From UHGV virus genome UHGV-0354473: 40,772 nt of DNA; one strand, given 5' to 3'. Positions 166-38,627 of the stretch are shown piece by piece. Origin of the DNA: a virus. The translations under genes were made by a program, and so were the position numbers. The notes under the pieces are model-generated. The model saw only the letters and a program-made list of their open reading frames with translations. It was not told the DNA's origin and did no database searches. Position 1 is the stretch's first letter; every line of letters begins with the position of its first letter.

Positions 166-169
166 ACTA

Positions 170-192
170 ACGGCCCGAAAGGGCCGTTTTTC
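170..192. terminator. Bidirectional rho-independent terminator between convergent genes
   Basis: GGCCC-GAAA-GGGCC hairpin at 172-185 followed by TTTTT. The reverse complement also ends in a T-rich tail. Confidence 0.6.
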
Positions 193-199
193 TACATTA

Positions 200-577
200 T
201 CAGAACTGCGGCTTTAATATATTATCCCACGAAATTTCAGGATACTTATCTTTCAACACGGAAACATCATCATTGATATAATTTGTAATAGCGCCATTTC
301 GATCAATAGGCACTAATTGTTCTTGGCAGCCATCTAATTCCTGGAAAAGAGGTTGCACTGCATCTTGCAGAAACATGGAGGACGGATAAATATTTAAAGT
401 GCAACCACCGTTGGCGCTAATGAATTCTAAAATACCACCTGTGCGCGAGGTCCACAATTCAATGGACTCAGCGCCCATCAACCCTAAATGACCATTCTTC
501 ACGAAACTATCTAATCGCGTTTCAGCTAATGCGTTAAAAGCTTGAGATGCCTCACTCATGTGTAATGTAATAGCCAT
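200..577 (-). CDS. Hypothetical 125-aa cytoplasmic protein, low-GC; weak resemblance to SMI1/KNR4 (SUKH) immunity-type proteins (LEFISANGG motif)
   Basis: ATG at 577 with AAGGA RBS 7 nt upstream. The ORF is complete. Motif GGILEFISANGG is reminiscent of the FL..NGG core of SUKH-1, but this was judged by eye only. Confidence 0.5.
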   Translation of the reverse strand: MAITLHMSEASQAFNALAETRLDSFVKNGHLGLMGAESIELWTSRTGGILEFISANGGCTLNIYPSSMFLQDAVQPLFQELDGCQEQLVPIDRNGAITNYINDDVSVLKDKYPEISWDNILKPQF

Positions 578-591
578 TTTCTAATCCTTAT

Positions 592-861
592 TTATAAACC
601 AAGAAAAAGTTTCAGTGCCGGTTCAGCCTCGTCAAGAGGGTTTCCGCTGCCGCTATACAAGAAACTGTGTCTATACGGTGTTGTACCGATAACACCATCT
701 ACAGTTACCTTAAACAACGCCCCGACGGTAGTGCCATCAAAACTGTCAAGCCCTGCCACTTCGAAAATAACGGGTATATCCACTTCAGAATCAGTTATAG
801 TAACCCCAAAGTCAGGATAGCTTACCACTCTGTTAACTTTCATGGTTGATTGTATACTCAT
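592..861 (-). CDS. Hypothetical 89-aa protein, low-GC and beta-rich
   Basis: ATG at 861 with AAGGATAAAG upstream. It lies in the same leftward low-GC cassette. Confidence 0.45.
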   Translation of the reverse strand: MSIQSTMKVNRVVSYPDFGVTITDSEVDIPVIFEVAGLDSFDGTTVGALFKVTVDGVIGTTPYRHSFLYSGSGNPLDEAEPALKLFLGL

Positions 862-866
862 AATCT

Positions 867-1055
867 TTATCCTTTATTCCTGATATTCGATACGGTGGTA
901 TTTATGCCCATTATAGCAATAAACAACACAGCTGTTATCACCCAGTTGTCATCAATAAACCCCGGATAATGTTTTTCTATCAAAGACCCAATATATGCAA
1001 AAACTAATAAATCAAAACGATTCGACCACTTAGCAGAAAGTTTCCAGTTTTTCAC
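867..1055 (-). CDS. Small 62-aa membrane protein with two predicted TM helices (pinholin-like topology), GTG start
   Basis: GTG start overlaps the stop of the upstream lipoprotein gene (GTGA coupling), preceded by GGAGGA. Hydrophobic stretches are FDLLVFAYIGSLI and WVITAVLFIAIMGI. Confidence 0.4.
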   Translation of the reverse strand: MKNWKLSAKWSNRFDLLVFAYIGSLIEKHYPGFIDDNWVITAVLFIAIMGINTTVSNIRNKG

Positions 1056-1372
1056 ATATCCTCCGACAGCCCGTCAATACACCCTTTAAAACCATACGCC
1101 ACAACGTCGGCGCGTCTCAATGACGGATTGCTGTAGATCGTAACAGCGATGCGCGTCATGCCTGATTTAATGGCCGGTGACATATCGCTGCCGTTGATAA
1201 TCTTGGTTACCGACTCCAGCGAGTCGCCGCGGTTCCGGGCGTCGACGATAACGCCGCCCATTTCGGCTAACTCCTGGCACATCTCCACCTCGGTAACGGC
1301 AGCGGCGGACCCGGCATACGAGCAGCCCAGGACGGCGGCCAGCGTGATTGCGATTGCGGTAATACGTTTCAT
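1052..1372 (-). CDS. Lipoprotein, 106 aa; signal peptide MKRITAIAITLAAVLG-C, lipobox VLGC
   Basis: Internal ATG at 1372 is preceded by CAGGAGCAAACACA, a strong SD. The lipobox cysteine sits at +19. The track ORF extends further 5' but has no RBS. Confidence 0.55.
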   Translation of the reverse strand: MKRITAIAITLAAVLGCSYAGSAAAVTEVEMCQELAEMGGVIVDARNRGDSLESVTKIINGSDMSPAIKSGMTRIAVTIYSNPSLRRADVVAYGFKGCIDGLSEDM

Positions 1373-1393
1373 TGTGTTTGCTCCTGAAAGTGG

Positions 1394-1409
1394 CCCCGCG
1401 AGGGGCCTG
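1394..1409 (-). terminator. GC hairpin GGCCCC-GCGA-GGGGCC immediately 3' of gene 1416..1727; weak or leaky terminator, or RNA processing site
   Basis: Perfect 6-bp stem with a GCGA tetraloop. The downstream U-run on the minus strand is poor. Confidence 0.3.
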
Positions 1410-1415
1410 TGTTGG

Positions 1416-1727
1416 TTAAAGAGGTATAGTCTTTCCGTATGTGACACGGTTTTCCCCTACCACAGGCTTGCGGCTAACGTAACCAGCTGTCAGGCGCTCG
1501 GTTGCGGTCATTGGGCGGGAAGAAACAACCCGAGAAGTATGTTTAACTTCCGGCAATGCGTTGCTATTGCTGTCGCCGGTCATAACGTATTGCGCAACGG
1601 AGTGGTTAAGCATATCGCGGAAAGTAATCTCAACTTTTGGTTCGTTGCGTGACGCCTCAGCCTTAGCTTTCATTTTTTCCCAACGTGCTTCGCCGTACTT
1701 TGCAATCATCTTTTCGCTAAAAGTCAT
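1416..1727 (-). CDS. Hypothetical 103-aa protein
   Basis: ATG at 1727 with GAGGATAAG SD at 8-nt spacing. The track's GTG start at 1754 lies inside the promoter element. Confidence 0.5.
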   Translation of the reverse strand: MTFSEKMIAKYGEARWEKMKAKAEASRNEPKVEITFRDMLNHSVAQYVMTGDSNSNALPEVKHTSRVVSSRPMTATERLTAGYVSRKPVVGENRVTYGKTIPL

Positions 1728-1773
1728 CGTCTTATCCTCGTTCGTCTGCGGCACCGCGCCGCCCTATGAACTA

Positions 1774-1802
1774 ACTATAATATGTATCCACTCATATTGC
1801 AA
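1774..1802 (-). promoter_or_regulatory. Leftward sigma70-like promoter TTGCAA-17-TATAGT embedded in the conserved element ATATCTGTAAATGTTGGTTGCAATATGAGTGGATACATATTATAGT
   Basis: -35 TTGCAA at 1797-1802, 17-bp spacer, -10 TATAGT (minus strand) at 1774-1779. About 40 bp are near-identical to the element at 25341-25392. Confidence 0.5.
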
Positions 1803-1809
1803 CCAACAT

Positions 1810-2301
1810 TTACAGATATTTTGCGATATCTGCGATCGAGCACTGGACGATGCACGCACCGTCGGGGTTGGGCCGGCGGCCAAAGATGATGATCTGCGAA
1901 TCGCGGTTATTCTTCGTCGCCGCGCGCTCGCCGGTTCGGGCGTGGATAAACTGGATGCGCTCGGTTAGCTGAATGATGGTATTCGCCTCCCGGCGCGCAA
2001 TATCCATCCACTGCGTAGCAACGGCCAGGTGCAGGAGCAACACCGTTTTACGGTACAGCGCGGCGTGCTGGAACCACGGCAGCGGCTTCGAGTAAGGCGG
2101 GTTACACCATTTCCACGCCGCGGGCCACTCGATGCCAAGGGCGCTGTTCTGTTCGGTGTAGTACCGCGCGCAAAGGGCGTTGTGATCGGCTGCCGCCATG
2201 TCGTAGCGGAAATTAAACCGCTCATTGAGCGGCTCGAATATCTCCGGTGGCGAGCGCCAGCAATCTTTATCCTCCGGCGCCGTGTTTGATTTGTCAGCCA
2301 T
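1810..2301 (-). CDS. DNA N6-adenine methyltransferase, phage Dam family (PF05869-like)
   Basis: Motif IV NPPY (WCNPPYSK) and the characteristic NALCARYYT..GIEWP context. Its start overlaps the helicase stop. Confidence 0.8.
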   Translation of the reverse strand: MADKSNTAPEDKDCWRSPPEIFEPLNERFNFRYDMAAADHNALCARYYTEQNSALGIEWPAAWKWCNPPYSKPLPWFQHAALYRKTVLLLHLAVATQWMDIARREANTIIQLTERIQFIHARTGERAATKNNRDSQIIIFGRRPNPDGACIVQCSIADIAKYL

Positions 2302-4372: not shown

Positions 4373-4399
4373 GGTTTGTCCTCCTTAGCAACCAACATA

Positions 4400-4690
4400 C
4401 TAAACACTATAGCGCAATTCTGCAACCAATTCGTTAACCTGTTCCTTGCTGCCGACGATGCGAACTATGGCGCCGCGCTGGCGCATGCGTTTGTGCTCGC
4501 GGGCCTGGTGCGGGTCGGGGCCGGTGCGCTCGTCTTTCTTCACCTCCACGAACACCACCAGGCCGCCGGGCAGAATGACCAGCAGATCGGGACATCCGTT
4601 GCGCCCCTCGTATCGGATTTTTCTTACCAGGCCGCCGAGTTTTTTAAACTCGGCCATTGCGTAAGCCTGTACTCTTCCCTCCGGCGTCAT
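4400..4690 (-). CDS. VRR-NUC domain nuclease (PD-(D/E)XK fold)
   Basis: GCPDLLVILPGG...VFVEVK matches the VRR-NUC D..E.K catalytic core. Confidence 0.75.
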   Translation of the reverse strand: MTPEGRVQAYAMAEFKKLGGLVRKIRYEGRNGCPDLLVILPGGLVVFVEVKKDERTGPDPHQAREHKRMRQRGAIVRIVGSKEQVNELVAELRYSV

Positions 4691-7791: not shown

Positions 7792-8538
7792 TTAGCGGCG
7801 ACGGCGGCGCGGTCGCTCTTCTTCCTCGTCTTCGTCGTCCTCATCGCGGGGGCGGCGACGGCGGGGTTTTTCCTCATCCTCGTCCTCATCGCGGGACCGG
7901 CGGGACGGTTTCGGTTTGGACTTGCCGCGGCGTGGTGCGTCGTCTTCATCGTCGTCCAGGTCATCGTCATTGGCGCGCTCGCTGGAGCCACCGCCGCCGA
8001 ACGCTTCACCGTCTTCGACGAATTTTACGCCGAGCCAGTTACAGCGCAGACCTTTGCCGTTGTCGTTATTCTGGCCCCACAATTCGATCGACACGTTGGC
8101 GAAGCAGCCGCCGTAAGGGACTTTACCTTCAAGGTCGTTCCCTTCAAGGTCTTCTTCACCGTCTTGGGTTTCTTCGCCCAGGTCAGTTAGGATGCGAGGC
8201 TGTTTATACGACTTGGCACGGATCCAGATTTTATGCTCGTAATTTTCATCTTCCGTGTCGCGCTCGTCGCCGTCTTTGATGGCGCAATCTTTGGAGATAT
8301 TGCCCTCGAGACCGCTTTCACGTTTAAGCCATTTTTCGGCAGCCTTTTCAGATTTAAGCGCTTCCGTCATTACTGCCAACGCCGCTTCGTCCAGCTTGGC
8401 GATATTTTTGTGATCATCCTTGTCAACCAGAATTTCGACGCGATAAGCATCCTTTTCGCCAGCATTCTGTGCTTTCGCTTTCTCGGTGCCGTAGAACCAT
8501 GCGATGCGAACGTTTTTCAGATTTACCTTGATTCCCAT
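7792..8538 (-). CDS. Single-stranded DNA-binding protein, T7 gp2.5-like (DUF2815-like), with an unusual mixed-charge C-terminal tail
   Basis: OB-fold-like N-terminal region followed by an AFGGGG+acidic segment, as in gp2.5 (ATFGGGEDD). The C-terminus alternates DE and R blocks and is encoded by a tandem DNA repeat. Confidence 0.55.
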   Translation of the reverse strand: MGIKVNLKNVRIAWFYGTEKAKAQNAGEKDAYRVEILVDKDDHKNIAKLDEAALAVMTEALKSEKAAEKWLKRESGLEGNISKDCAIKDGDERDTEDENYEHKIWIRAKSYKQPRILTDLGEETQDGEEDLEGNDLEGKVPYGGCFANVSIELWGQNNDNGKGLRCNWLGVKFVEDGEAFGGGGSSERANDDDLDDDEDDAPRRGKSKPKPSRRSRDEDEDEEKPRRRRPRDEDDEDEEEERPRRRRR

Positions 8539-8617
8539 TTTTCGTTTCTCACTTTTTGCGATTCTCCCGGAAACCGCCGGGCCGGTATAAATACGTTAAT
8601 TTAGTTGGTTGCAGATG

Positions 8618-8869
8618 TCAATGATAAATGCCGGTGAATCTTTCCACCCACAAGATCCAAATGTTGGGCCAGTTCCAGTTATTGACCCAGCGCATAAGGC
8701 GACCGGCGCGAGTATCCTGCTCCATGATCTCGTCCGCATTCATCGTCCCTGAGTAGATGAACGCCAGCATGATAAACGGCATAGCTACCACCAGACACGG
8801 CGCGATAAGGGCCCACGATATAGCCATAGATATTACATAGGCTAATGCCTTCAACATGCGATAAATCAT
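8618..8869 (-). CDS. Small hydrophobic, Trp-rich membrane protein, 83 aa
   Basis: Two or three predicted TM segments. ATGA overlap with the upstream nuclease gene. Confidence 0.45.
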   Translation of the reverse strand: MIYRMLKALAYVISMAISWALIAPCLVVAMPFIMLAFIYSGTMNADEIMEQDTRAGRLMRWVNNWNWPNIWILWVERFTGIYH

Positions 8870-10191
8870 GATAAATCCTCATCGGATGCCTGTTTCCACT
8901 CGGCGCGCGGGTCGTCAGCTGCCGCTATTGTTGGCTTTCCCGGGGCGCGCTCGATAAGTTTCTCCAGGCGTCGCCAGATCCGCGGTTTCTCGGTCTTAAA
9001 GACTTTTTCCGCATCGGTTGGCGAGATCAGCGACTCTTTAAACATCATGTCGCGTTTGATGCGCGCGCCTTCCAGCATTTCGGTAACCTTCGCAGCGTCT
9101 GACCATTTACGGTTACCCTCGTTACCGGTCACCAGCTTATATCCCGGAACTGCGACGCCCGACAACAACGCCGCGTGCATCGCCTTTTCGATGGTAGCGA
9201 TGTGCTGGCGCAACTCCGGCAGCTTTTCATAGGCCGCTTTCAGCGCTTCCGGCGTCATTTCGTGGCTGTCGTCGCCCAGGTCGGCATCCGTTGCCGTTGC
9301 CCCACCCGTTTGGATGGCCGCTTTAGACCGGGCGTTGCATTTCTCGTTGAACCGGCACCACTGGCATGCGTCCGCCGACGGTTTGAAATGGCTGGCCTTG
9401 AGATTTTTCTTACCACCGTAGTACACGTCAAGCGCCTCGATCGCGCGCTTGCTGGCGAACTTGCGGAAGATGTCCAGTCCCTCTGGCGTGATGTCCCATT
9501 CTGACGGGCCACCGCAATAAGGCTGGAATATCGCCAGGCGCACCAGCGTAATGTCATACAGCCTGCGCAGCTTCGCCAGGATAGCCAGCGCGTACAGCAT
9601 AAGCTGTTTGTTCTCTTTCGCGTCTACCGCGTGGCGCCCGGTTTTCAGGTCGCCTACCAGCAGCATAAACGACCCGTCTGTGCGCGGGATAACGGCAACC
9701 AGATCCGCCGTGCCGAAAGTTTTTACAGGAGTTACTGCAGTATGCCCGCCGTTAAGTTCGCCAACGCCGACGTAGCCTGGGTGCAGTAACTTAGTAAGCT
9801 CGGCGCGCATCTCGATCTTCACGTACTCAGCGGATGAGATGATCCCGAGCGCATAATCGGTGTAGCGCTCGACCATGGTCACGAATTCATCGTTGATGAG
9901 TACCGCGCCAGCTGGCGGCTTGCCCGCCACCGCCTTAATCGGGCCTTTGCCTTCATTCAGGACGTAGACGCCCTTGTAATGCGCCGCTGTTACGGTTGTC
10001 TCGCCTTTAATATGCCGGTTTAAAAGGTCCTCGGATACCGCGTGCATCGCGGTCCCGTTAATGGCCGCCTGTCCGCTTTCGTTCGGGATGTCCTTCTCGC
10101 ACAGCAGGGACGCGCTACAGCCTAACCATTTTTTAGATCCGGACGGAGACAGCAAGGCGTGTTCGTGATTGCTGCCGCTTGCATTGGTCAT
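8866..10191 (-). CDS. PD-(D/E)XK nuclease, DUF2800 family (Cas4/RecB-like, C-terminal Cys cluster)
   Basis: N-terminal HALLSPSGSKKWLGCSAS is typical of DUF2800, and C-terminal CQWCRFNEKC resembles an Fe-S-type cluster. This family commonly travels with phage PolA. Confidence 0.7.
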   Translation of the reverse strand: MTNASGSNHEHALLSPSGSKKWLGCSASLLCEKDIPNESGQAAINGTAMHAVSEDLLNRHIKGETTVTAAHYKGVYVLNEGKGPIKAVAGKPPAGAVLINDEFVTMVERYTDYALGIISSAEYVKIEMRAELTKLLHPGYVGVGELNGGHTAVTPVKTFGTADLVAVIPRTDGSFMLLVGDLKTGRHAVDAKENKQLMLYALAILAKLRRLYDITLVRLAIFQPYCGGPSEWDITPEGLDIFRKFASKRAIEALDVYYGGKKNLKASHFKPSADACQWCRFNEKCNARSKAAIQTGGATATDADLGDDSHEMTPEALKAAYEKLPELRQHIATIEKAMHAALLSGVAVPGYKLVTGNEGNRKWSDAAKVTEMLEGARIKRDMMFKESLISPTDAEKVFKTEKPRIWRRLEKLIERAPGKPTIAAADDPRAEWKQASDEDLS

Positions 10192-11463: not shown

Positions 11464-11940
11464 TTATTCAGCGTCGTAGAACTCTTCGATCAGCTCTTTC
11501 AGCGCGTCGTGGAATTCGTCCACCTGGTCGTCGTCCAGCTCTTTGACGTTCTTAACTTCGAAGTCTTCCAGCAGGTCGTCGAACTTATCCACCAGCGCGT
11601 CGGCGTCGTCATCGTCCAGACCGACTCCTTCTACGGCAACTTTAGCCATTTCGCCGATCGCTGCGCGCTTGTCGGTGCCTTTCTTGCTGCGGGTGGCCTT
11701 GGCCGGCGCTTCGGTTTTGCCGCCGCGTTTTTTGGTGGTAGTCTTCTCTTCCTGCTCGTCGTCTTCCGGTTCTTCCTTCTTGGCCGGAGCCTTACGGGTG
11801 CGGGTCGGTTTCTCTTCTGCCGGTTTAGCTTTCTCCGCAGAAACCTCGCTGGCGCCGCCTGTGGCCGGTGAAGAGTTAGCGGCGATCAGTTCATGGGCAA
11901 TAACAAAGCGCTCCAGCAGTGCGTAAAATTTCTCGATCAT
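11464..11940 (-). CDS. First leftward early gene: 158-aa protein with a lysine-rich centre and strongly acidic C-terminal helix region
   Basis: ATG at 11940 with AACGAGGA SD. The C-terminal 60 aa are about 45% D/E (DDDDADALVDKFDDLLEDFE...). This is a candidate DNA mimic or host-takeover factor. Confidence 0.55.
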   Translation of the reverse strand: MIEKFYALLERFVIAHELIAANSSPATGGASEVSAEKAKPAEEKPTRTRKAPAKKEEPEDDEQEEKTTTKKRGGKTEAPAKATRSKKGTDKRAAIGEMAKVAVEGVGLDDDDADALVDKFDDLLEDFEVKNVKELDDDQVDEFHDALKELIEEFYDAE

Positions 11941-11984
11941 GGTAAATCCTCGTTTAGTTAAGTTGGTTGCGTTTCGGCGATGTA

Positions 11985-12014
11985 ATAATATGTCCAGATA
12001 AATCAGGATTGCAA
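11985..12014 (-). promoter_or_regulatory. PL-like leftward promoter TTGCAA-18-TATTAT
   Basis: -35 at 12009-12014 and -10 (rc ATAATA) at 11985-11990. It drives 11940 leftward. Confidence 0.5.
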
Positions 12015-12148: not shown

Positions 12149-12385
12149 ATGGCTACAGCACGCCGTAACCCTTTCCAGCTCCGCGTCAATGCGCGGATGA
12201 AACACCTTGGCCTGCGGCAGCAGGATGTTGTAATGCGCGGGGGACTTTCGCAATCGGCTTTATCTTTCGTGCAGAACGGGCGAACCAGAAGCCTGAGTAT
12301 GGAGAACATCTTTCGCCTTGCGGACGCGCTGGAATGCGATCCGCGCTGGCTTGCGCTTGGGGAAGGCTCCCCGGATAAAAAATAA
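12149..12385 (+). CDS. HTH XRE/Cro-family transcriptional regulator, 78 aa
   Basis: LRQQDVVMRGGLSQSALSFVQNG is a helix-turn-helix of HTH_3 type. It is the first rightward gene in the divergent control region. Confidence 0.8.
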   Translation: MATARRNPFQLRVNARMKHLGLRQQDVVMRGGLSQSALSFVQNGRTRSLSMENIFRLADALECDPRWLALGEGSPDKK

Positions 12386-12450: not shown

Positions 12451-14751
12451 ATGCCACGGTTAAAATCAAAAATATCCTATTCGCTCGGCCGGCATAAAAC
12501 CGACAATCGACCCAAAGCCTTCCTATCCTCCTGGGATGAATTTCTCGCGGACCTTCTGGAGATTGGCTCCGATCCGGTCCTGGGCGTATCTATCAGCGGC
12601 AGCGAATCAGAAGAACGTTACGAAGAGCTGAAAGGGCGGTTGCCGTATGTCGCGGCGGAGTTTGCGAACAACCGGCGCAATAACCCTAACGTCGCGTCCC
12701 GCTCCCTGCTGTTTATCGACATCGACAAAGTATCCAGCAAAGAGATCCGCCGGGTGCGTCGCGCGCTGGAGGATGGCGGCTTTACTTTCTTCGCGTACTC
12801 TACCTGCGGCGACCGGCACGACCTGAAAGGCGGCATAAAGTCGCGGTCCTGGCGATTCATTATCCCCACGGATCGGCCGATGCTGGCGGACGAGATCTGG
12901 CCGTGCCAGCATAAATTCATCGATATGCTCGGGCTGACCGGCGCAAAAGGGATGGACGAAACTGCTTTCCAGCGCGCCCGCCTTATGTTCGCCCCGCACA
13001 TTGAGGCCGAGACCATCGACCACCGCGGCGCGCCCGCCAGCATCCGCCGGATCCTGCGCCACCGGTTCGACGTGCCGGACGAATCGGGCTCGACCAACTG
13101 GACCGACGAAGCGCTGGAGAACGCCAGCGAGAACAGCCAGGCTATCGCTGCGTGGTGCTGGGAGATGGGCCTTGAACCCCTATCCTCTGGCCGCGGCTTC
13201 GCCATACAGTGCCCGAACCACTATCAGCACAGCGACAACGACGGGACCGACGGCAGCACGGCGATCATGATGCCGGATGCGCTTCACCCCGAGGTTCGTT
13301 TCGCGTGCCAGCATGACCACTGCAAAAAGCACAACACCCACCAGCACATGATGCTGCGCCTTTGTGGCGTGCCGGACCAGTATTTGCCGGAAGCCCACAA
13401 TATCAGCAAAAAGCAGATCGCCGAACTGCTGCCGGATTTGCCCGAAGAAGAGGTGACATACGTCTACGAGGCCGAAGTAATGGCGGCGCTGGACGGTCCG
13501 TCCGCCGGTCAGTGTACCGACGAGGACCTGGACGACGACCCGGTTACCCTGTTCACCAAGCGCGATCCCATTATCGAGGGACTGATCAATTTCAAGTCCA
13601 CGTGGTACGCCGCCGGCGAGTCAAATATCGGTAAGTCGTTTTTCGTCCTCGGTCAGATGGCGGCTATTTCCGCCGGGATCCCGTTCGGCGGACGGCGTGT
13701 CGTGCGCGCGCACAACTTTTACTTCGATGCGGAAGGTGGAGAGACCAGCCAGCACCGTAAGCAGGCGCTGCAGAAGATGTATCAGGACGACCTGGACTGG
13801 CTGCATGTCATCGACCTGCAGGATAAAGGCATCGACATTACCGACGCGCGGGGCGTGAAAGAGGTATGCAAGATTATCCGTGACGCGGCCGGAGACGCCC
13901 CCGTTGGCTTGGTGGCCTTCGACTCGCTTAACCAGACCGTAGCCATGCGCAGCTCGGCTAAAAAGCCGTTCGATGAGAACTCCCCGACAGATATGGGGGA
14001 AATTGTCCGCGCGCTGAAACAGATCTCCGAGACCACCGGCGGCAGCGCGGGCGTTATCCACCACCCGGCGAAGTCGTCCTCGGGCCAGCGTACCGCCCGC
14101 GGCTCCGGCGCGCTGCATGGCGCCGTCGACTATGCCTACTTCATCGAGCAGCCGGACGAGACCAAACCGCACCAGATCAACCTGTATCACGAAAAAGCGC
14201 GTAACGGCGTCAAGCAGTCCCCCCGCGGCTTTGTCCTGCTGAAATGTAAAATCGACGTCCCCCAGGCGCACGCCGACCGGGTAGATGCGTACCTGTCCAC
14301 CGCCGCCGGCCCGGACTTTTCCGATCAGCTGTCCGGCTGGACGCCGAAACCGCTGGAGATGTCGCCGCGTGACGAAACGCTTTATCTGGTGCCGGTCGCC
14401 ATGGCGCCATTCGAATCGCCCGCTGCCGAAGTCGCCCGGGAAGCTGTTAAGTCTGCAGGCGGTGCCGGGCCAAAGAATAAAGCCGAGGAGGTGATGGTCG
14501 CCCAGCTTGAACTGCTGGAGGACAAGCCAGAGGGTTATTCGCCCTACGCCATCGGCACCGCAGGCGGAAACAAGTTCACCAGCGGCAACTATAAAAAAGT
14601 GCTGGAAGAACTGGTGCGACGACGGGTTTTAGTGCATGGCCGAAACCCGAATACAGGCGAAGTTTACAACCAACAATACAGGCTGCCGACTGGCTTGAAC
14701 GATTTCGACCCACCGGAATTGGTTGCAAGTGATGAAGACTTAAACTCGTAA
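12451..14751 (+). CDS. Primase-polymerase (AEP-type)/helicase (RecA-like AAA_25) fusion replication protein with zinc motif and C-terminal extension
   Basis: N-terminal LLFIDID (DxD) and FAYSTCG..H motifs, a central Cys/His cluster (CPNHYQH...CQHDHC), Walker A GESNIGKS and Walker B LVAFDSL. Confidence 0.85.
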   Translation: MPRLKSKISYSLGRHKTDNRPKAFLSSWDEFLADLLEIGSDPVLGVSISGSESEERYEELKGRLPYVAAEFANNRRNNPNVASRSLLFIDIDKVSSKEIRRVRRALEDGGFTFFAYSTCGDRHDLKGGIKSRSWRFIIPTDRPMLADEIWPCQHKFIDMLGLTGAKGMDETAFQRARLMFAPHIEAETIDHRGAPASIRRILRHRFDVPDESGSTNWTDEALENASENSQAIAAWCWEMGLEPLSSGRGFAIQCPNHYQHSDNDGTDGSTAIMMPDALHPEVRFACQHDHCKKHNTHQHMMLRLCGVPDQYLPEAHNISKKQIAELLPDLPEEEVTYVYEAEVMAALDGPSAGQCTDEDLDDDPVTLFTKRDPIIEGLINFKSTWYAAGESNIGKSFFVLGQMAAISAGIPFGGRRVVRAHNFYFDAEGGETSQHRKQALQKMYQDDLDWLHVIDLQDKGIDITDARGVKEVCKIIRDAAGDAPVGLVAFDSLNQTVAMRSSAKKPFDENSPTDMGEIVRALKQISETTGGSAGVIHHPAKSSSGQRTARGSGALHGAVDYAYFIEQPDETKPHQINLYHEKARNGVKQSPRGFVLLKCKIDVPQAHADRVDAYLSTAAGPDFSDQLSGWTPKPLEMSPRDETLYLVPVAMAPFESPAAEVAREAVKSAGGAGPKNKAEEVMVAQLELLEDKPEGYSPYAIGTAGGNKFTSGNYKKVLEELVRRRVLVHGRNPNTGEVYNQQYRLPTGLNDFDPPELVASDEDLNS

Positions 14752-15055
14752 AATAATACGTGTTGCGAGTCTTGCGAATCGACTCGCAAGACTCGCAAAA
14801 TTTTGCGAATGAAATTGCGAGTAATGTTTTCAATAACTTAGGTGCTTTTTGTTGGTTTTCGCAAAAATGGATTGCGAGTCGGTAGGTAAGTGATTGATTT
14901 GGTGGGGGATTTTGTCTCGCAAAGTGAGTCGATCACGTTATTGCGTCTCAGGCGAGCTGCCCTTTGGCGGGCGTCGCCAAGAGAACGCAGTGATCGTATC
15001 ATATTTTTTGCGAGTTTGCAATAGCTGGAATGTAAATATCACGGCAGCAAGTACC
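14745..15055. repeat. Non-coding regulatory module copy 1: ACTCGCAA iterons (six or more), a GATC-flanked GC hairpin and a conserved TGATCGTATCAT-TTTTTGCGAG...TGTAAA core. Homologous to 24240-24530.
   Basis: Similarity to copy 2 starts at the last codons of the upstream gene (AACTCGTAA). The 42-bp iteron block 14781-14822 differs by 2 bp from 24267-24308. Confidence 0.7.
14763..14798. repeat. 36-bp near-perfect palindrome TTGCGAGTCTTGCGAATC|GACTCGCAAGACTCGCAA, made of four ACTCGCAA/TTGCGAGT half-sites
   Basis: 15-bp perfect inverted arms with a single mismatch in the full 18+18 alignment. Confidence 0.8.
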
Positions 15056-15304
15056 TGATACGGGGTGGCGGGATAATTTTTCTGGTTGGTTGCGGTGATT
15101 CTGGCAGCGGGTTACGTTGGATTTAGTGTCGGTAATGGGTGGTAACCTATATGGCTAATAGGCTCTCGTATAGCAGGTCTGGCGGGCATTGGGGATGGCG
15201 GGCTCTATTAAGATTAGTCCTAGCGAAATCCGCACTCCACGCGCACAAGTAGGCTAGTAGACTACCATACCAGTTACCGCGGCCCTTATTTTTGCTATCC
15301 GGTA

Positions 15305-15334
15305 TTGCAACCAACATTGATTTAGACATATACT
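15305..15334 (+). promoter_or_regulatory. Rightward promoter TTGCAA-18-TATACT for the early small-gene operon
   Basis: -35 is the first hexamer of the TTGCAACCAACA element (15305-15316). -10 is at 15329-15334, and the first gene has a GAGGAG RBS. Confidence 0.5.
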
Positions 15335-18276: not shown

Positions 18277-18345
18277 GACCGCCACTTGTAATGTTGGTTG
18301 CAATATGGTTATACTCATATCGTCAATCACACAGGAGCAAACGAA

Positions 18346-19606: not shown

Positions 19607-19632
19607 GCCCGCCCCCGTGCGGGCTTCTTTTG
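19607..19632 (+). terminator. Rho-independent terminator
   Basis: GCCCGC-CCCCGT-GCGGGC hairpin followed by TTCTTTTG. Confidence 0.6.
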
Positions 19633-24247: not shown

Positions 24248-24530
24248 TAAATTACGCGTAACGGTGACTCGCAAGACTCGCAAAATTTTGCGAGTCGAAT
24301 TGCGAGTATAAATATCAAGGACTTACGCTCATTTCGTTGGTTGCTGCCGTTTTAGTTTGCGAGTGGTGAAATTAGGTGAGTAAAATCAAGGAGTTACAAC
24401 GTGGAAGGCTGAATCGATCACTTCAATTGCTTGTTGCGCGCCCGCCCTAGCGGGGCGTCGCTCAAAAGCGAAGCTGATCGTATCATTTATTTTGCGAGAA
24501 ATCAACGGCAGCAATTGTAAAGGTGGCGAT
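24240..24530. repeat. Non-coding regulatory module copy 2, homologous to 14745-15055: four ACTCGCAA half-sites in palindrome, a GATC-flanked GC hairpin and the TTTTGCGAG...TTGTAAAGG core running into the Rz RBS
   Basis: Iteron block 24266-24308, TCGATCAC at 24414-24421, CTGATCGTATCAT at 24474-24486 and TTGCGAG at 24492-24498. Confidence 0.7.
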
Positions 24531-24920: not shown

Positions 24921-25026
24921 CGAAGATTTGAATGCGGACGTGCAGAACATGGATTGTGGGAGAAAGTTAAGGCTGCAGGTGTACCAGCTGCAGGACTGGA
25001 TCCGGAATGTGACAACGCCCCTATAA
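24778..25026 (+). CDS. o-spanin (Rz1-like) outer-membrane lipoprotein, overlapped with Rz
   Basis: Signal MCKIMIVCAVLLTMTG-C lipobox followed by a Pro-rich mature region (SSSGPSIMPTPS). GAGGTGG SD. It starts inside Rz in another frame. Confidence 0.6.
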   Translation: MCKIMIVCAVLLTMTGCGSSSGPSIMPTPSQAMMVKPCQFQPAEKDSDEDLNADVQNMDCGRKLRLQVYQLQDWIRNVTTPL

Positions 25027-25040
25027 CGGGGCGTTTTTTA
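25017..25040. terminator. Bidirectional rho-independent terminator shared by Rz1 (+) and the antisense mini-operon (-)
   Basis: GCCCC-TATAA-CGGGGC hairpin followed by GTTTTTTA. The minus-strand ORF stop lies in the hairpin. Confidence 0.6.
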
Positions 25041-25161
25041 TCAACCAGGCCAGGCCCCAGCAGACGAAGGCGATGGTTAGCCACGCTGCCGGGAGATAGA
25101 CCAGAAACACCCGGCGCCGTTGCTGGTACTTCGTCGGGTTACGCTTTGCCATTGGTTTCAT
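25021..25161 (-). CDS. Small 46-aa membrane peptide (MKPMAKRNPTKYQQRRRVFLVYLPAAWLTIAFVCWGLAWLIKNAPL)
   Basis: Not in the ORF track (<60 aa). ATGA coupling to the upstream basic ORF, a basic N-terminus followed by one TM helix, and a terminator immediately after. Confidence 0.45.
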   Translation of the reverse strand: MKPMAKRNPTKYQQRRRVFLVYLPAAWLTIAFVCWGLAWLIKNAPL

Positions 25162-25310
25162 CGGCCGAATCTCCTTGCGGCTTTATGAATCCATTTTGGT
25201 GTTTTCCCAAGACTCAAAATGGTGTACGCAGTAGCGAGACGACGCGCACAACGACGGAGGCGGCGTAAGTCGACCTTTCCGGATTTACGGTATTTAGTTG
25301 ATACAGGCAT
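25158..25310 (-). CDS. Small 50-aa highly basic protein (MPVSTKYRKSGKVDLRRLRRCARRLATAYTILSLGKTPKWIHKAARRFGR)
   Basis: Not in the ORF track. Strong SD AAAGGAG 8 nt upstream of ATG 25310. It is transcribed from the conserved leftward promoter 25341-25369. Confidence 0.45.
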   Translation of the reverse strand: MPVSTKYRKSGKVDLRRLRRCARRLATAYTILSLGKTPKWIHKAARRFGR

Positions 25311-25340
25311 AGCTATTGCTCCTTTGTTGTTGGTTTCTTA

Positions 25341-25369
25341 AATATAATATGTCTCCACTCATATTGCAA
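25341..25369 (-). promoter_or_regulatory. Leftward promoter TTGCAA-17-TATATT; about 40 bp near-identical to the promoter element at 1774-1808
   Basis: -35 at 25364-25369 (part of TTGCAACCAACA at 25364-25375) and -10 (rc AATATA) at 25341-25346. Confidence 0.55.
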
Positions 25370-25471
25370 CCAACATTTGCAGATATATTGTTAATACTTG
25401 CGCTGCCCTGTATATTTAGCGTATGTAAATCCGGGTGGCCCGGATTCATAAAGACCAGGGGTCTACGTACT

Positions 25472-30907: not shown

Positions 30908-30908
30908 A

Positions 30909-30935
30909 AGAAAGGGGCCGTTAGGCCCCTTCCCT
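30909..30935. terminator. Bidirectional terminator between the major tail gene (+) and the antisense cassette (-)
   Basis: AGGGGCC-GTTA-GGCCCCT hairpin. The minus strand is followed by TTCTTTT. Confidence 0.6.
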
Positions 30936-31106
30936 TAGCGCTTTAAGCATTTTCAACGCCATAGGCACGGAGGAAGTTCCAAGTATTTCAACATCGCCGC
31001 CGCGGTCAAGTACATGAAAACGGCAGTGGGTTAAGGTAATATACACCTCAGAAAATCGGTGATTCTTCATTTCTTCCAGTAAATCAGCCATAAGACTAAT
31101 AGCCAC
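30921..31106 (-). CDS. Small 56-61-aa protein (MADLLEEMKNHRFSEVYITLTHCRFHVLDRGGDVEILGTSSVPMALKMLKALREGA), second gene of the antisense cassette
   Basis: GTG at 31106 or ATG at 31091. Its stop lies in the terminator hairpin. Confidence 0.45.
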   Translation of the reverse strand: MAISLMADLLEEMKNHRFSEVYITLTHCRFHVLDRGGDVEILGTSSVPMALKMLKALREGA

Positions 31107-31284
31107 GTTTCGCCCTCTCTTCTGTCAGTTTAACAATTTCGCTTTTTACTTCCGGTTTCGCATTCGCCAGAATCTGGCGCAGCAATTCAACCTGTTCGCT
31201 TGACCGCGTAGCGTAGCGCACCACGAAGAACAGCACGGCCAGGTTTAGGCCCATCGCCAGAATTGCTATAATGAATTGCGTCAT
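31096..31284 (-). CDS. Small 62-aa membrane protein (N-terminal TM plus charged helical tail), first gene of the antisense cassette
   Basis: ATG at 31284 with AAGAGGA SD. The TM segment is FIIAILAMGLNLAVLFFVV. A divergent promoter region lies upstream. Confidence 0.5.
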   Translation of the reverse strand: MTQFIIAILAMGLNLAVLFFVVRYATRSSEQVELLRQILANAKPEVKSEIVKLTEERAKRGY

Positions 31285-31359
31285 GGTATATTCCTCTTTG
31301 AAAGTTCTATATGTATATAATCATATCGCAACCAACAAATCAACCATAGCGGGTTAAAA

Positions 31360-36045: not shown

Positions 36046-38627
36046 AAACACACTTAATCACGCGCGATGAAAACGGCGAATTTCAGACGAAAAGTTTTTG
36101 GGACTCGCCAATGCAGATCGTGCTACAGCATATCCCCGACGGCGTCCCGTTCCGGGTATACCTCGGCAGCATAGGCGAAGATAACGACGTCACCGAGGAT
36201 TTCGACCGCCTCGAACTTAATGCCGAGTATTATGTTATCGAATCGCCGGGTGGCGGTGCGGTGGGGGCAGTTTTCAGTTTCGTTGGGAAAATTCTTAACC
36301 CGATCCTAAAACTGTTAATGCCGTCACAAAAAACGTCGGTGTCGGCGGGACTGTCTAACCAGCAGGCGGAAAGCCCGAATAACAGCCTAACGGACCGCAC
36401 GAACAAGGCCCGCCCTTACGAGCGCACTTACGATATTTGCGGCACGGTGCAGAGCATTCCGGCGATCCTCATGACCAGCTACCAACTTTATAACAGCGCC
36501 GGCCAGGTTATAGAGTTCGGCTACTACGATGTCGGCCGCGGGCCAATGTCGACGCCGGCCAGCGGCATCACCGACGGCGACACACTGCTTTCAGAGATCA
36601 CCGGGTCATCAGCTGCCGTATACGCGCCATATACTTCACCAAACAGCGGAGACGCTCCACAAACGCTGGTAGGCGACCCTATTACTGAACCGCTGTTCAT
36701 CACCTACGCGTCGAATGAGATCGACGGACAGACACTAAGAGCGCCTAACGACCTTAACGCAAGCATTACCGGCGACGGCGGCACGATAGCGTCGCTTTCT
36801 GGCACCACGGGGACTATCACCGACGCTTCGGGTAACGCAGCCTTTAACGCGTATCTGGAGGCCGGAGACACGGCGAGACTGGCTAACGTCACGCTGAATG
36901 ACCCGGGCGGCCCGGATCCGTATCTGGACGGCTATTATCCGGTTATTTCGGTTAGCGAAGTCGACATCGTTCTGGACGTCTCCAGTAACCTGTCAGCCTG
37001 GCAGGTGATCAGCCCAACAGTTAATCAGGTGAATGCCGCGGACCCCGCCGGAAACGCCGCCGAGATCGGCCCTATAAACACCGTGGAGAAAAGTTTAACC
37101 GATTGGGTGTCTATCACCAGTCTGGAATGCGAACGCGTCCTGGTGAATATCAGCGCCGATAATGGCATGTATAAGGACAACGGCAGCAGTAGCAAAAAGC
37201 CCGTCAGCGTAACGGCCGAGGTACAGTATCAGCTGCTTGATCAAAACAACAACCCCTATGGCGATGTTTACGCGGTCCAGGGCACCGTGTCGGGCAGGTC
37301 TTCCAACTCGACCGGCGTTAGTATCATCGCGGACCTGCCGTTTGCTTCGCGCGTGCGCGTCCGGGCGCGCCGGGTGACGGATGTCGATTTCGATTTCGAG
37401 GGGCAGGTCGTCGATGAGATAAAATACGATGCGCTTTACGGCCAGGTGCAAGACCGATCGCATGATTACGGCAACCGTACAACCGTACACACCGCCCGCA
37501 AACAGACGCCGCGAGCCACCTCGGTAAAGTCCCCAAAACTGGCGCTCATCGTCACCGAGAAACTCTATAAATACCTGGGCGGTGGTGTGTTCGATACTGT
37601 GCTGACCGAAAATACACAGGCGGTGCAATCTCTGATCCGGTTGATGCGCGATCCGGTAGTGGGTAACCTGAATCTCACCGCGGCGAACATGGATAAGCTG
37701 ATCGCCACCCAGGCCGAGGTCGAGGCATATTTCGGTACGCCGCTTGCCGGGCAATTCTGCTACACGTTCGACTCCTACGAGACGACGGCGCAGGACATTA
37801 TCACGACGATAGCCGAGGCCATCTTTTGCTCGGCGTCGCGCCGGGGGCATAGCATTTATCTTGACCTGGAACGCCCTCGGGCCGGGCCGGAAATGGTATT
37901 CACACACCGCAGTAAAGCACCATCCGGGGAAAAATGGACGCGGCAGTTTAACGACCGCACGGCCTATGATTCGCTTAAATTCAGCTATATCGACCCGGAC
38001 ACCAACATCAAAGAGACCATCCAGATCCCGGAGACTGGCGGCGTTAAAACCGACACCTATGACTCGAAGGGCATCCGCAACTATCAGCAAGCCTACTGGC
38101 ACGCCTGGCGCCGATATCAGCGGAATAGCCTTAACCGTGTTGCCGTTGAGTTTACGGCGCTGGAGGAAGGCGCTCTCGCCATACCAGGGCGGCCGATCAG
38201 CGTGGTAAAAGGGTCGCGCGTCTCGCCTTTCGACGGGTATGTTATCGCGGTCAATGGGCTTACTCTCACGCTTTCGCAACCGGTGGAATTTACCCCGGGC
38301 GAGGACCATTCGATCATACTCAAAAAGCGCGACGGGTCGGTGCAGAGTGTTGGCGTTACGCCCGGTGCTAATGCACAGCAGGTGGTTATGCTTTCCGCGC
38401 CCACGGAATCCATTTATACTGGTAACGACGCATTAAAGACCGAGTTCTCCTTCGGCAGCGATGCGCGGCACTCCGCGCAAATGATGTTGGTTAGTACCGT
38501 GACGCCAGGTAATAATCGCACCGTGGTGATTACCGGATACAATTATTCCGACGGGTACTACGAAAAAGATGGCGTGTCGCCGTTCGGGCGGGCGTTTAGC
38601 ACCGGTTTTGATACTGGTTTTTCATAA
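36042..38627 (+). CDS. Central tail fiber / tail tip host-specificity protein (lambda J-like)
   Basis: 862-aa protein after the M/L/K-like genes. ATG at 36042. Confidence 0.7.
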   Translation: MKTHLITRDENGEFQTKSFWDSPMQIVLQHIPDGVPFRVYLGSIGEDNDVTEDFDRLELNAEYYVIESPGGGAVGAVFSFVGKILNPILKLLMPSQKTSVSAGLSNQQAESPNNSLTDRTNKARPYERTYDICGTVQSIPAILMTSYQLYNSAGQVIEFGYYDVGRGPMSTPASGITDGDTLLSEITGSSAAVYAPYTSPNSGDAPQTLVGDPITEPLFITYASNEIDGQTLRAPNDLNASITGDGGTIASLSGTTGTITDASGNAAFNAYLEAGDTARLANVTLNDPGGPDPYLDGYYPVISVSEVDIVLDVSSNLSAWQVISPTVNQVNAADPAGNAAEIGPINTVEKSLTDWVSITSLECERVLVNISADNGMYKDNGSSSKKPVSVTAEVQYQLLDQNNNPYGDVYAVQGTVSGRSSNSTGVSIIADLPFASRVRVRARRVTDVDFDFEGQVVDEIKYDALYGQVQDRSHDYGNRTTVHTARKQTPRATSVKSPKLALIVTEKLYKYLGGGVFDTVLTENTQAVQSLIRLMRDPVVGNLNLTAANMDKLIATQAEVEAYFGTPLAGQFCYTFDSYETTAQDIITTIAEAIFCSASRRGHSIYLDLERPRAGPEMVFTHRSKAPSGEKWTRQFNDRTAYDSLKFSYIDPDTNIKETIQIPETGGVKTDTYDSKGIRNYQQAYWHAWRRYQRNSLNRVAVEFTALEEGALAIPGRPISVVKGSRVSPFDGYVIAVNGLTLTLSQPVEFTPGEDHSIILKKRDGSVQSVGVTPGANAQQVVMLSAPTESIYTGNDALKTEFSFGSDARHSAQMMLVSTVTPGNNRTVVITGYNYSDGYYEKDGVSPFGRAFSTGFDTGFS

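Follow-up and report, generated by a model that had tools for sequence, protein, structure and literature searches.

A predicted family of sigma-70-type promoters sharing a 9-bp box in the genome of a Klebsiella siphophage of the subfamily Guernseyvirinae

Introduction

The early promoters of phages T4 and T5 belong to host-polymerase (sigma-70) families with a phage-specific extended consensus. Other short repeated sites in phages and bacteria serve replication as well as transcription: DnaA boxes are 9-bp asymmetric sites that cluster at the origin and are also found in promoters, which lets the initiator regulate transcription as well, and in phage P4 the alpha primase-helicase binds the ori and crr iterons through its C-terminal winged-helix domain. 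The stoperators of mycobacteriophage L5 are reportedly 13-bp asymmetric repressor sites scattered in intergenic DNA, and the morons of lambdoid and other tailed phages are said to consist of an accessory gene with its own promoter and terminator lying between conserved genes. Within the subfamily Guernseyvirinae, seven PHIRE-type repeated regulatory elements per genome have been described for phage VB_EcoS-Golestan (PMC7203180), and elements with the consensus tgAATAGTa-ccTATTat-T in fBC-Eco01 were assigned by the authors to a phage RNA polymerase (PMC9825357). Here we analyse the virus genome UHGV-0354473, a stretch of 40,772 nucleotides (the window, by which we mean the whole stretch), and within it a pair of near-identical minus-strand repeats, copy A (1772..1823) and copy B (25339..25390). 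We put a probability of roughly 0.6 on the reading that A and B are sigma-70-type promoters of accessory cassettes and that the 9-bp box GTTGGTTGC, which they share with other sites in the window, is the predicted site of one phage protein whose binding would most likely be repressive.

As in the extended-consensus promoter families, the elements described here stand in several copies per genome before operons, share sequence past the hexamers and have clade-specific versions; unlike in those families, the sequence is new and the core occurs in three geometries. In contrast to fBC-Eco01, no RNA polymerase is annotated in the Klebsiella phages VLCpiS11a and 37P2 or in K1G, nor in the Serratia phages Tsm2 and Smarc3, and promoters for a phage-encoded RNA polymerase were therefore rejected as a candidate; the largest non-structural open reading frames (ORFs) encode the DNA polymerase and a primase-helicase. 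Repeated promoter elements and cassettes are familiar features of phages, and what is new and specific here is the hypothesis of the box.

Results

The two repeats (family D7 of a repeat search) are 92% identical over 52 nt. Read on the minus strand, 1820->1774 is ATATCTGTAAATGTTGGTTGCAATATGAGTGGATACATATTATAGT and 25387->25341 is ATATCTGCAAATGTTGGTTGCAATATGAGTGGAGACATATTATATT, with 3 differences, and a 43-nt degenerate pattern matches these two places only, with no match in any of 100 dinucleotide-preserving shuffles. The promoter scan gave TTGCAA-17-TATAGT for copy A (P_A; −35 at 1797-1802, −10 at 1774-1779) and TTGCAA-17-TATATT for copy B (P_B; −35 at 25364-25369, −10 at 25341-25346), each with 9 of 12 consensus matches (4/6 and 5/6), so that pairwise alignment and scan both agree with the initial annotation, which had described two near-identical leftward elements with three differences and TTGCAA-17-TATA(G/T)T on the minus strand. 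Both copies have hexamers close to TTGACA and TATAAT at a distance within 16-18 bp and are followed by a co-oriented gene with a ribosome-binding site, as sigma-70 promoters should be; the promoters stand 26-41 nt before a minus-strand ATG with a Shine-Dalgarno sequence, and counted from the −10 the ATG follows after about 46 nt in A (ATG at 1727 with GAGGA before it) and after 30 nt in B (ATG at 25310 with AAGGAG before it). Their proposed role as leftward promoters ahead of accessory cassettes gains support from this predicted anatomy, from the ORFs with ribosome-binding sites downstream and from the conservation pattern in 17 copies given below. The box GTTGGTTGC overlaps the −35 in both (1799-1807 in A and 25366-25374 in B, minus strand), and the copy A repeat also contains the stop codon (1810-1812, minus) of the upstream methyltransferase ORF. 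Back to back with P_B, a promoter-like TTGTTA-17-TATATT (25388-25416) points rightward before the scaffold gene, and the P_B leader contains an imperfect inverted copy of the box (GTTGGTTTC, 25329..25337, plus), which reads GAAACCAAC in the leader and whose AACCAAC is present in 8/8 B orthologs compared, including those with otherwise different leaders. The predicted RNA folding of copy A is unremarkable (z = −0.8), and that of copy B (z = −2.9) is explained by pairing of the box with this inverted partial copy; a search for the repeat as a structured RNA found no Rfam match.

The pair is real but not isolated, contrary to what its description as two elements implied, since a 16-nt core, TGTTGGTTGCRATATG, is found at five places (exact in A, B and two further promoters, C and D, and with 2 mismatches in a third, E) and the 9-mer at ten. 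In promoter C (31314..31343, minus; TTGATT-18-TATATA; repeat family D6) and promoter D (18286..18315, plus; TTGTAA-18-TATACT) the core lies in the spacer (TGTTGGTTGCGATATG at 31322-31337 in C, and 18292-18307 in D); the hexamer 17 bp past the TTGCAA of the core is poor in both, and the upstream TTGATT or TTGTAA fits at 18 bp. Promoter E (15305..15334, plus; TTGCAA-18-TATACT) carries the core inverted (15301-15316, minus), and the palindromic TTGCAA is its −35. The core thus takes three geometries, as the −35 (A, B), in the spacer (C, D) and inverted across the −35 and spacer (E), and all five predicted promoters directly precede co-oriented small ORFs with ribosome-binding sites. Promoter D is preceded by a terminator-like hairpin and followed by four small genes, up to a terminator at 19607-19624; the promoter-like TTGCCT-17-TATAAT at 19630, before the terminase genes, has no box.

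The window contains 10 copies of the box GTTGGTTGC, compared to 0.41 expected; none of 100 shuffles reached 10, and all ten positions are non-coding. Five of these sites have only the box in common with the A-E family. The first (4388..4396, minus) lies in the leftward replication operon, between a stop codon (4400-4402) and the ribosome-binding site and ATG (4372) of the next gene, and abuts the ribosome-binding site; the second (8604..8612, plus) occupies the gap between ORFs 8618-8869 and 7792-8538 (both minus) and is antisense to transcription. The third (11962..11970, plus) is in the leader of the leftward early operon, ~14 nt past the −10 of TTGCAA-18-TATTAT (12014->11985) and ~22 nt before the ATG at 11940. 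The fourth (15085..15093, plus) belongs to the long non-coding stretch that follows the primase-helicase gene, and the fifth (24336..24344, plus) to a second iteron-bearing non-coding region, 13 nt upstream of TTGCGA-18-TAAAAT (24357-24386). The box is asymmetric, with 7 copies sense and 3 antisense to local transcription. It spans positions −40..−32 in A and B, −29..−21 in C and D and −34..−26 in E, and where there is a recognisable promoter beside a box, the box always lies within the polymerase footprint. The ten orthologous sites in VLCpiS11a, a genome annotated independently, all fall in the 7.9% of its DNA without annotated coding sequence. Among orthologs, none of the 90 box columns varied, compared to 21% of the flanks (17% within 12 nt), in a test that overstates independence because the genomes in it share ancestry and are close (84-92%). 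The literature, searched for the 9-mer, yielded only unrelated primer sequences and no phage context. Upstream of the exact box at 4388-4396, within the 3′ end of ORF 4400-4690 (minus), a one-mismatch box, ATTGGTTGC (4422-4430), is accompanied by TATAGT, and 4403-4430 may be an internal promoter embedded in the coding sequence.

A gapped 26-base pattern run against IMG/VR recovered only true relatives, seven ~40 kb genomes that all come from one metagenome, and together with VLCpiS11a and 37P2 these gave 9 A copies and 8 B copies (17 in all). A 14-mer scan of IMG/VR gave mostly chance matches (homologous to the window in only 6 of ~120 loci), and the B region, compared with GenBank phages by distant blastn, matched VLCpiS11a and 37P2 only. 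Positions −44..−29 (AAATGTTGGTTGCAAT) are identical in 17/17 copies and −16..−3 (ATATTATAGTTAG) are nearly invariant, with positions −26..−17 varying freely; the spacer is 17 long in 17/17 copies, the −35 is invariant, and the −10 is TATAGT in 14/17. Fixed hexamers around a drifting spacer are the pattern that would be expected of a real sigma-70 promoter, and support that assignment. Selection on more than the −35 and −10 had been proposed and is borne out by the invariance of AAATGTTGGTTGCAAT, but the upstream half ATATCTGTAAATG does not hold as the constrained element: in A, ATATCTGTAA comprises the last codons and stop of the methyltransferase gene (...AAA TAT CTG TAA, the end of ORF 1810-2301, minus), and its Leu codon is CTG, CTA or TTA among orthologs, which, judging by the codons, is synonymous drift and not operator-like constraint.

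The same letters as at the methyltransferase end stand in non-coding DNA in copy B, which suggests that B arose as a copy of A and carried the stop-codon region of the gene along. A recent duplication private to this genome, as had been supposed, is contradicted by the presence of both loci in 8-9 related genomes; as the two loci are found throughout the clade, the duplication must be old, and it is the spacers of the window that are unusually alike. Over the 12 spacer positions, A and B agree at 11/12 in the window, at 9/12 in VLCpiS11a and at 3-8/12 in the remaining genomes; in some genomes the likeness runs past the −10 instead. So patchy a likeness suggests that the copies have repeatedly recombined or undergone gene conversion.

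Outside the closest relatives, we found zero copies of GTTGGTTGC in phages Jersey and K1G and the same 9-mer 8-9 times in the Serratia phages Tsm2 and Smarc3. Loci fetched through a helix-turn-helix protein of the XRE type held 4-7 box copies per ~20 kb in seven close relatives and no copy in three intermediate relatives (L141-L143; ~50% identical XRE proteins). GTTGGCTG(Y) takes its place there: 5-6 copies in L141 and L143 occupy the 3′ end of the primase-helicase gene and the DNA immediately past it, in both orientations, and L142 has three copies. Tsm2 has four boxes (three exact, one with 1 mismatch) at 9370-9490, in the last ~100 bp of its primase-helicase gene; the frames in which these are read (0, 1, 1 and 0) and the residues they encode (ATN, NQ, NQ and ATK) differ, so that selection there acts on the DNA and not on the protein. 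The box therefore looks, as far as its distribution goes, like the iteron of a putative origin that co-evolves with the phage and that in the Klebsiella clade has also spread to promoters. Promoters of Tsm2 at places orthologous to D, A and E (13700-13769, 36784-36866 and 10080-10144) contain TTGCA.-N12-AGAATAC(G/T)ATTA, that is, a shared extension TTGCA.-N12-AGAATACGATTA in orthologous positions; since this extension differs from the one in the window, each clade seems to have its own promoter 'dialect'.

The putative origin is one of two homologous non-coding regions of ~250 bp that lie 9.5 kb apart, at 14760-15040, directly after the primase-helicase gene, and at 24255-24520, after the head-morphogenesis gene. 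All 11 genome copies of the octamer TTGCGAGT are in these two regions, direct and inverted (1.5 expected genome-wide), and each region has a GC-rich hairpin, GATCGTATCAT, ACGGCAGCA and one GTTGGTTGC. The two-region layout recurs in Tsm2 with another octamer, TTCCGCAC, and L141 uses CGGACAA. By analogy, the two regions look like an origin and a second cis-replication region, as the ori and crr of P4. The window resembles P4 in that a primase-helicase gene is followed by iteron-rich non-coding DNA with a second homologous region 9.5 kb away, and, on a predicted model, in a C-terminal primase-helicase fold whose top matches are winged-helix proteins (not significant); it differs from P4 in that the primase-helicase has no sequence similarity to any solved structure. 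By GC skew, the putative origin (~15 kb) and the transcription switch (~12 kb) could not be told apart. A further octamer, ACGGCAGC, is present in 26 copies against 2.3 expected, on both strands and mostly in coding DNA (for example at 13250, 15041, 24505 and 33229), and is absent from the replication gene block (2.1 to 13.2 kb); in Tsm2 and Smarc3 the words with the strongest over-representation are 9-mers related to it, and AACGGCAAC is present 11 times in K1G.

Two phage proteins were considered as binders of the box. The XRE-type helix-turn-helix gene (12149-12385, plus; 78 aa, HTH_3) lies at the divergent early region, and its product had been put forward as the regulator; this does not agree with the asymmetry of the box or with the recognition helix, which is SQSALSFVQNG in the window and SQGMLNHLRGG in Tsm2, two phages that share the same 9-mer. 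XRE homologues are also found across Guernseyvirinae, including in genera without the box. The primase-helicase has a BT4734-like N-terminal domain and an AAA_25 domain, no match to the Protein Data Bank (PDB) by sequence, and C-terminal ~80 residues without a Pfam family. These residues are predicted to form a helix-strand-helix-helix-hairpin at a predicted local distance difference test score (pLDDT) of about 70-80, in a model of a 223-residue fragment (usable residues about 131-212) for which the homologue search gave 5 sequences; a single-sequence AlphaFold model of the C-terminus had a pLDDT of 38.6. In a fold comparison with the PDB, every top match is a winged-helix protein (MarR, linker histone, Fur, ArsR, Orc1), and none is significant (best E = 0.03). 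The C-terminus (14308-14748) diverges faster between clades than the rest of the protein (34-51% vs. 50-63% identity). Its 'wing' reads LVHGRN..GEV in both clades that use GTTGGTTGC and ..FGKD.KGRLLNG.. in L141-L144, three of which have GTTGGCTG. This covariation of wing and box is no more than suggestive of the primase-helicase C-terminus as the binder, as it involves three clades and the private octamers also need a binder.

Cassette A (169..1727, minus) consists of ORFs 1416-1727, 1052-1372, 867-1055, 592-861 and 200-577, followed by a terminator at 169-188; the product of ORF 1052-1372 has a signal peptide with a lipobox-like LGC. The GC content is 0.36-0.46 over 200-1100 and 0.53-0.62 over 1100-1600, and of the claim that copy A drives a low-GC leftward cassette, the position before a leftward cassette stands, while the low GC applies to the distal three genes only. 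In the leader of cassette A, after P_A, a GC-rich hairpin GCGGC-GCGGT-GCCGC (1728-1766) is kept in 8/9 A orthologs despite different genes, and may be a 5′ stabiliser or regulatory stem. Cassette B (25014..25310, minus) agrees with the antisense mini-operon expected behind copy B: two tiny overlapping minus-strand ORFs lie directly downstream (25158-25310, 50 aa, basic; 25021-25161, 46 aa, hydrophobic, with an ATGA overlap), and the cassette ends in a hairpin (25014-25035) whose T-run is on the opposite strand, with none on the minus strand. Cassette C (30908..31284, minus, antisense) contains ORFs 31096-31284 and 30921-31106 and ends in a bidirectional terminator, GGGGCC-GTTA-GGCCCC, at about 30908-30935; ORF 31096-31284 has a weak YebO-like match (25.8 bits, just under the Pfam cut-off of 27 bits). 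The cassette A and B proteins matched no Pfam family and no PHROGs function.

Across 9 genomes, almost every one has a different first gene behind A, B and D, with the promoter kept, from which we conclude that the promoters mark fixed slots for exchangeable accessory genes. The cassettes resemble morons in that B and C lie antisense within the structural gene block, with a predicted promoter of their own and a hairpin at the far end, in that their content varies, and in that the distal part of cassette A is low in GC. They differ from morons in that the phage is virulent, that the slots are fixed, with the promoter kept while the genes change, and that the hairpin of cassette B has no T-run on the minus strand.

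The closest relatives over the first 12 kb (megablast) are the Klebsiella phages VLCpiS11a (ON602745) and 37P2 (ON107243), at ~90% identity, with the Serratia phages Tsm2, Otaku and Smarc3 as more distant matches. VLCpiS11a, 37P2 and the Serratia relatives are ~40 kb siphophages of the subfamily Guernseyvirinae, and the gene order of the window agrees with theirs. The window is a complete, circularly permuted Guernseyvirinae genome opened within a gene, because bases 1-165 are the 3′ end of a tail fibre or spike gene that starts near the right end of the window; neither VLCpiS11a nor 37P2 matches the distal tail fibre region (38.6-40.77 kb) or bases 1-1144. Between about 11.9 kb and 1.8 kb the replication genes point leftward, the primase-helicase gene (12451-14751) runs rightward, and it is followed on the plus strand by small genes and the lysis, terminase, head and tail genes. 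The annotations of the close relatives VLCpiS11a and 37P2 contain no lysogeny genes, and the phage is a virulent Klebsiella siphophage. An Rfam search and a scan for transfer RNAs gave no matches in the window.

Discussion

Taken together, these comparisons favour the reading of A and B as sigma-70-type accessory-cassette promoters that share, through the box, the predicted site of a single phage protein. Host RNA polymerase would start at A and B, which have the appearance of good constitutive-type promoters, and transcribe leftward into the small accessory genes. One sequence-specific phage protein would occupy GTTGGTTGC and compete with sigma region 4 or with polymerase, and once accumulated would jointly repress A-E and the leaders that contain a box, which could, for example, end early and accessory expression. 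We consider repression the most likely outcome of binding because the boxes lie in the polymerase footprint and because the A and B hexamers are near consensus at optimal spacing. Identity of A and B outside the box and hexamers would then come from common descent, with patchy recombination or gene conversion added. The idea that the two accessory cassettes are co-regulated through a shared regulator is plausible in principle under this reading, via the 9-bp box and not via the upstream half.

Several observations weigh against it. The flanks beside some boxes are also conserved, so promoter constraint could explain part of the invariance of the box, and the relatedness of the compared genomes weakens the column test itself. 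Relative to the −10, the box varies in where it lies and which way it points, so one fixed activator geometry is excluded and binding could act in either direction. In one A ortholog the −10 is TACAGT, the full promoter scan exceeded shuffles modestly (22 vs. 12.9, and 17 vs. 13.4), and the Guernseyvirinae promoter literature contained software predictions only, with no transcript, footprint or reporter data found.

A and B might instead be plain duplicated promoters without a shared regulator, in which case the invariant block would be a favoured −35 plus an upstream polymerase contact. TTGCAA does appear to be the preferred −35 of this phage, as it is also found in the leftward early promoter at 12014; the likeness of A and B is patchy and differs by genome (most spacer positions in the window, fewer elsewhere, in some genomes extending past the −10); and AATAT-N10-ATATT in the spacer is limited to A, B and D, whose cores are homologous. 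This explanation is nonetheless unlikely, given that the 9-mer is exact at five non-homologous sites, including the one that abuts a ribosome-binding site (4388), the one in a leader (11962) and the one at 15085, far from any −10, that Tsm2 clusters it inside a coding region in different frames, and that the −35 hexamer requires only TTGC of the nine bases.

If the box were bound by a protein of the Enterobacterales host, the promoters would be tied to host physiology, and the occurrence of the same 9-mer in phages of two host genera, Klebsiella and Serratia, fits with this. To our knowledge, however, none of the consensus sequences that we compared by eye (sigma-54, IHF, DnaA, LexA, TyrR, CpxR, PhoP, Tus/Ter and CRP) fits the box, and the intermediate relatives L141-L143, which are metagenomic contigs, use GTTGGCTG, for which a co-evolving phage protein would be a better explanation than a fixed host factor; we regard a host binder as improbable. 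An operator of the phage's own XRE/Cro-type protein is quite improbable. Such a protein is encoded at the divergent early region, and the spacers of A, B and D contain the short inverted repeat AATAT-N10-ATATT, as an operator might. The box itself is asymmetric, however, and the early region, the expected target of a Cro-like protein that regulates its own gene, does not contain the inverted repeat, which is also not significant: with 3 matches against 1.0 expected, a number reached in 8 of 100 shuffles, and confined to A, B and D, it was rejected as an operator candidate. The XRE recognition helix differs between the window and Tsm2 despite their common 9-mer, and homologues of the protein occur across Guernseyvirinae, yet Jersey and K1G are without the 9-mer. 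That the repeats are recombination boundaries for cassette swapping, or a structured RNA, and not promoters is very improbable, because, although almost all relatives have exchanged the genes behind the repeats, with breakpoints immediately past the −10, the promoter anatomy is full, no matching repeat stands at the far ends of the cassettes, copy A folds unremarkably with no Rfam match to the repeat, and a boundary role is compatible with promoter function and not an alternative to it.

Beyond the reading of A and B as promoters under one phage protein, a tentative and, on balance, doubtful possibility is that GTTGGTTGC is an 'initiator box', bound in the origin cluster and in at least 8 promoter or leader regions by the winged-helix C-terminus of the primase-helicase or by another origin protein. 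Like DnaA boxes, the sites are 9 bp, non-palindromic and in both orientations, clustered by a replication gene in relatives and dispersed in promoters here, and unlike them they have a different sequence. They resemble the L5 stoperators as short asymmetric sites in ~10 or more copies in intergenic gaps, some of them inside one operon (4388, 8604); the L5 sites, in contrast, reportedly follow transcription and are bound by the prophage immunity repressor, and the orientation here is mixed (7/3). If the initiator-box proposal is true, the accumulating replication protein would shut off accessory and early promoters, a coupling of replication and transcription like that of DnaA boxes, in a virulent siphophage, and A and B, with the box fused to the −35, would be its clearest case.

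Guernseyvirinae have been widely isolated with a view to therapy against Klebsiella, Salmonella, E. coli and Serratia, and their gene regulation is essentially unstudied. The predicted promoters and the fixed exchange slots behind them are places to seek host-takeover or anti-defence genes, and the conserved promoter-plus-slot layout would offer natural insertion points for phage engineering. Mutation of the single 9-bp site should affect many transcription units simultaneously, and the link between the site and the putative origin is testable.

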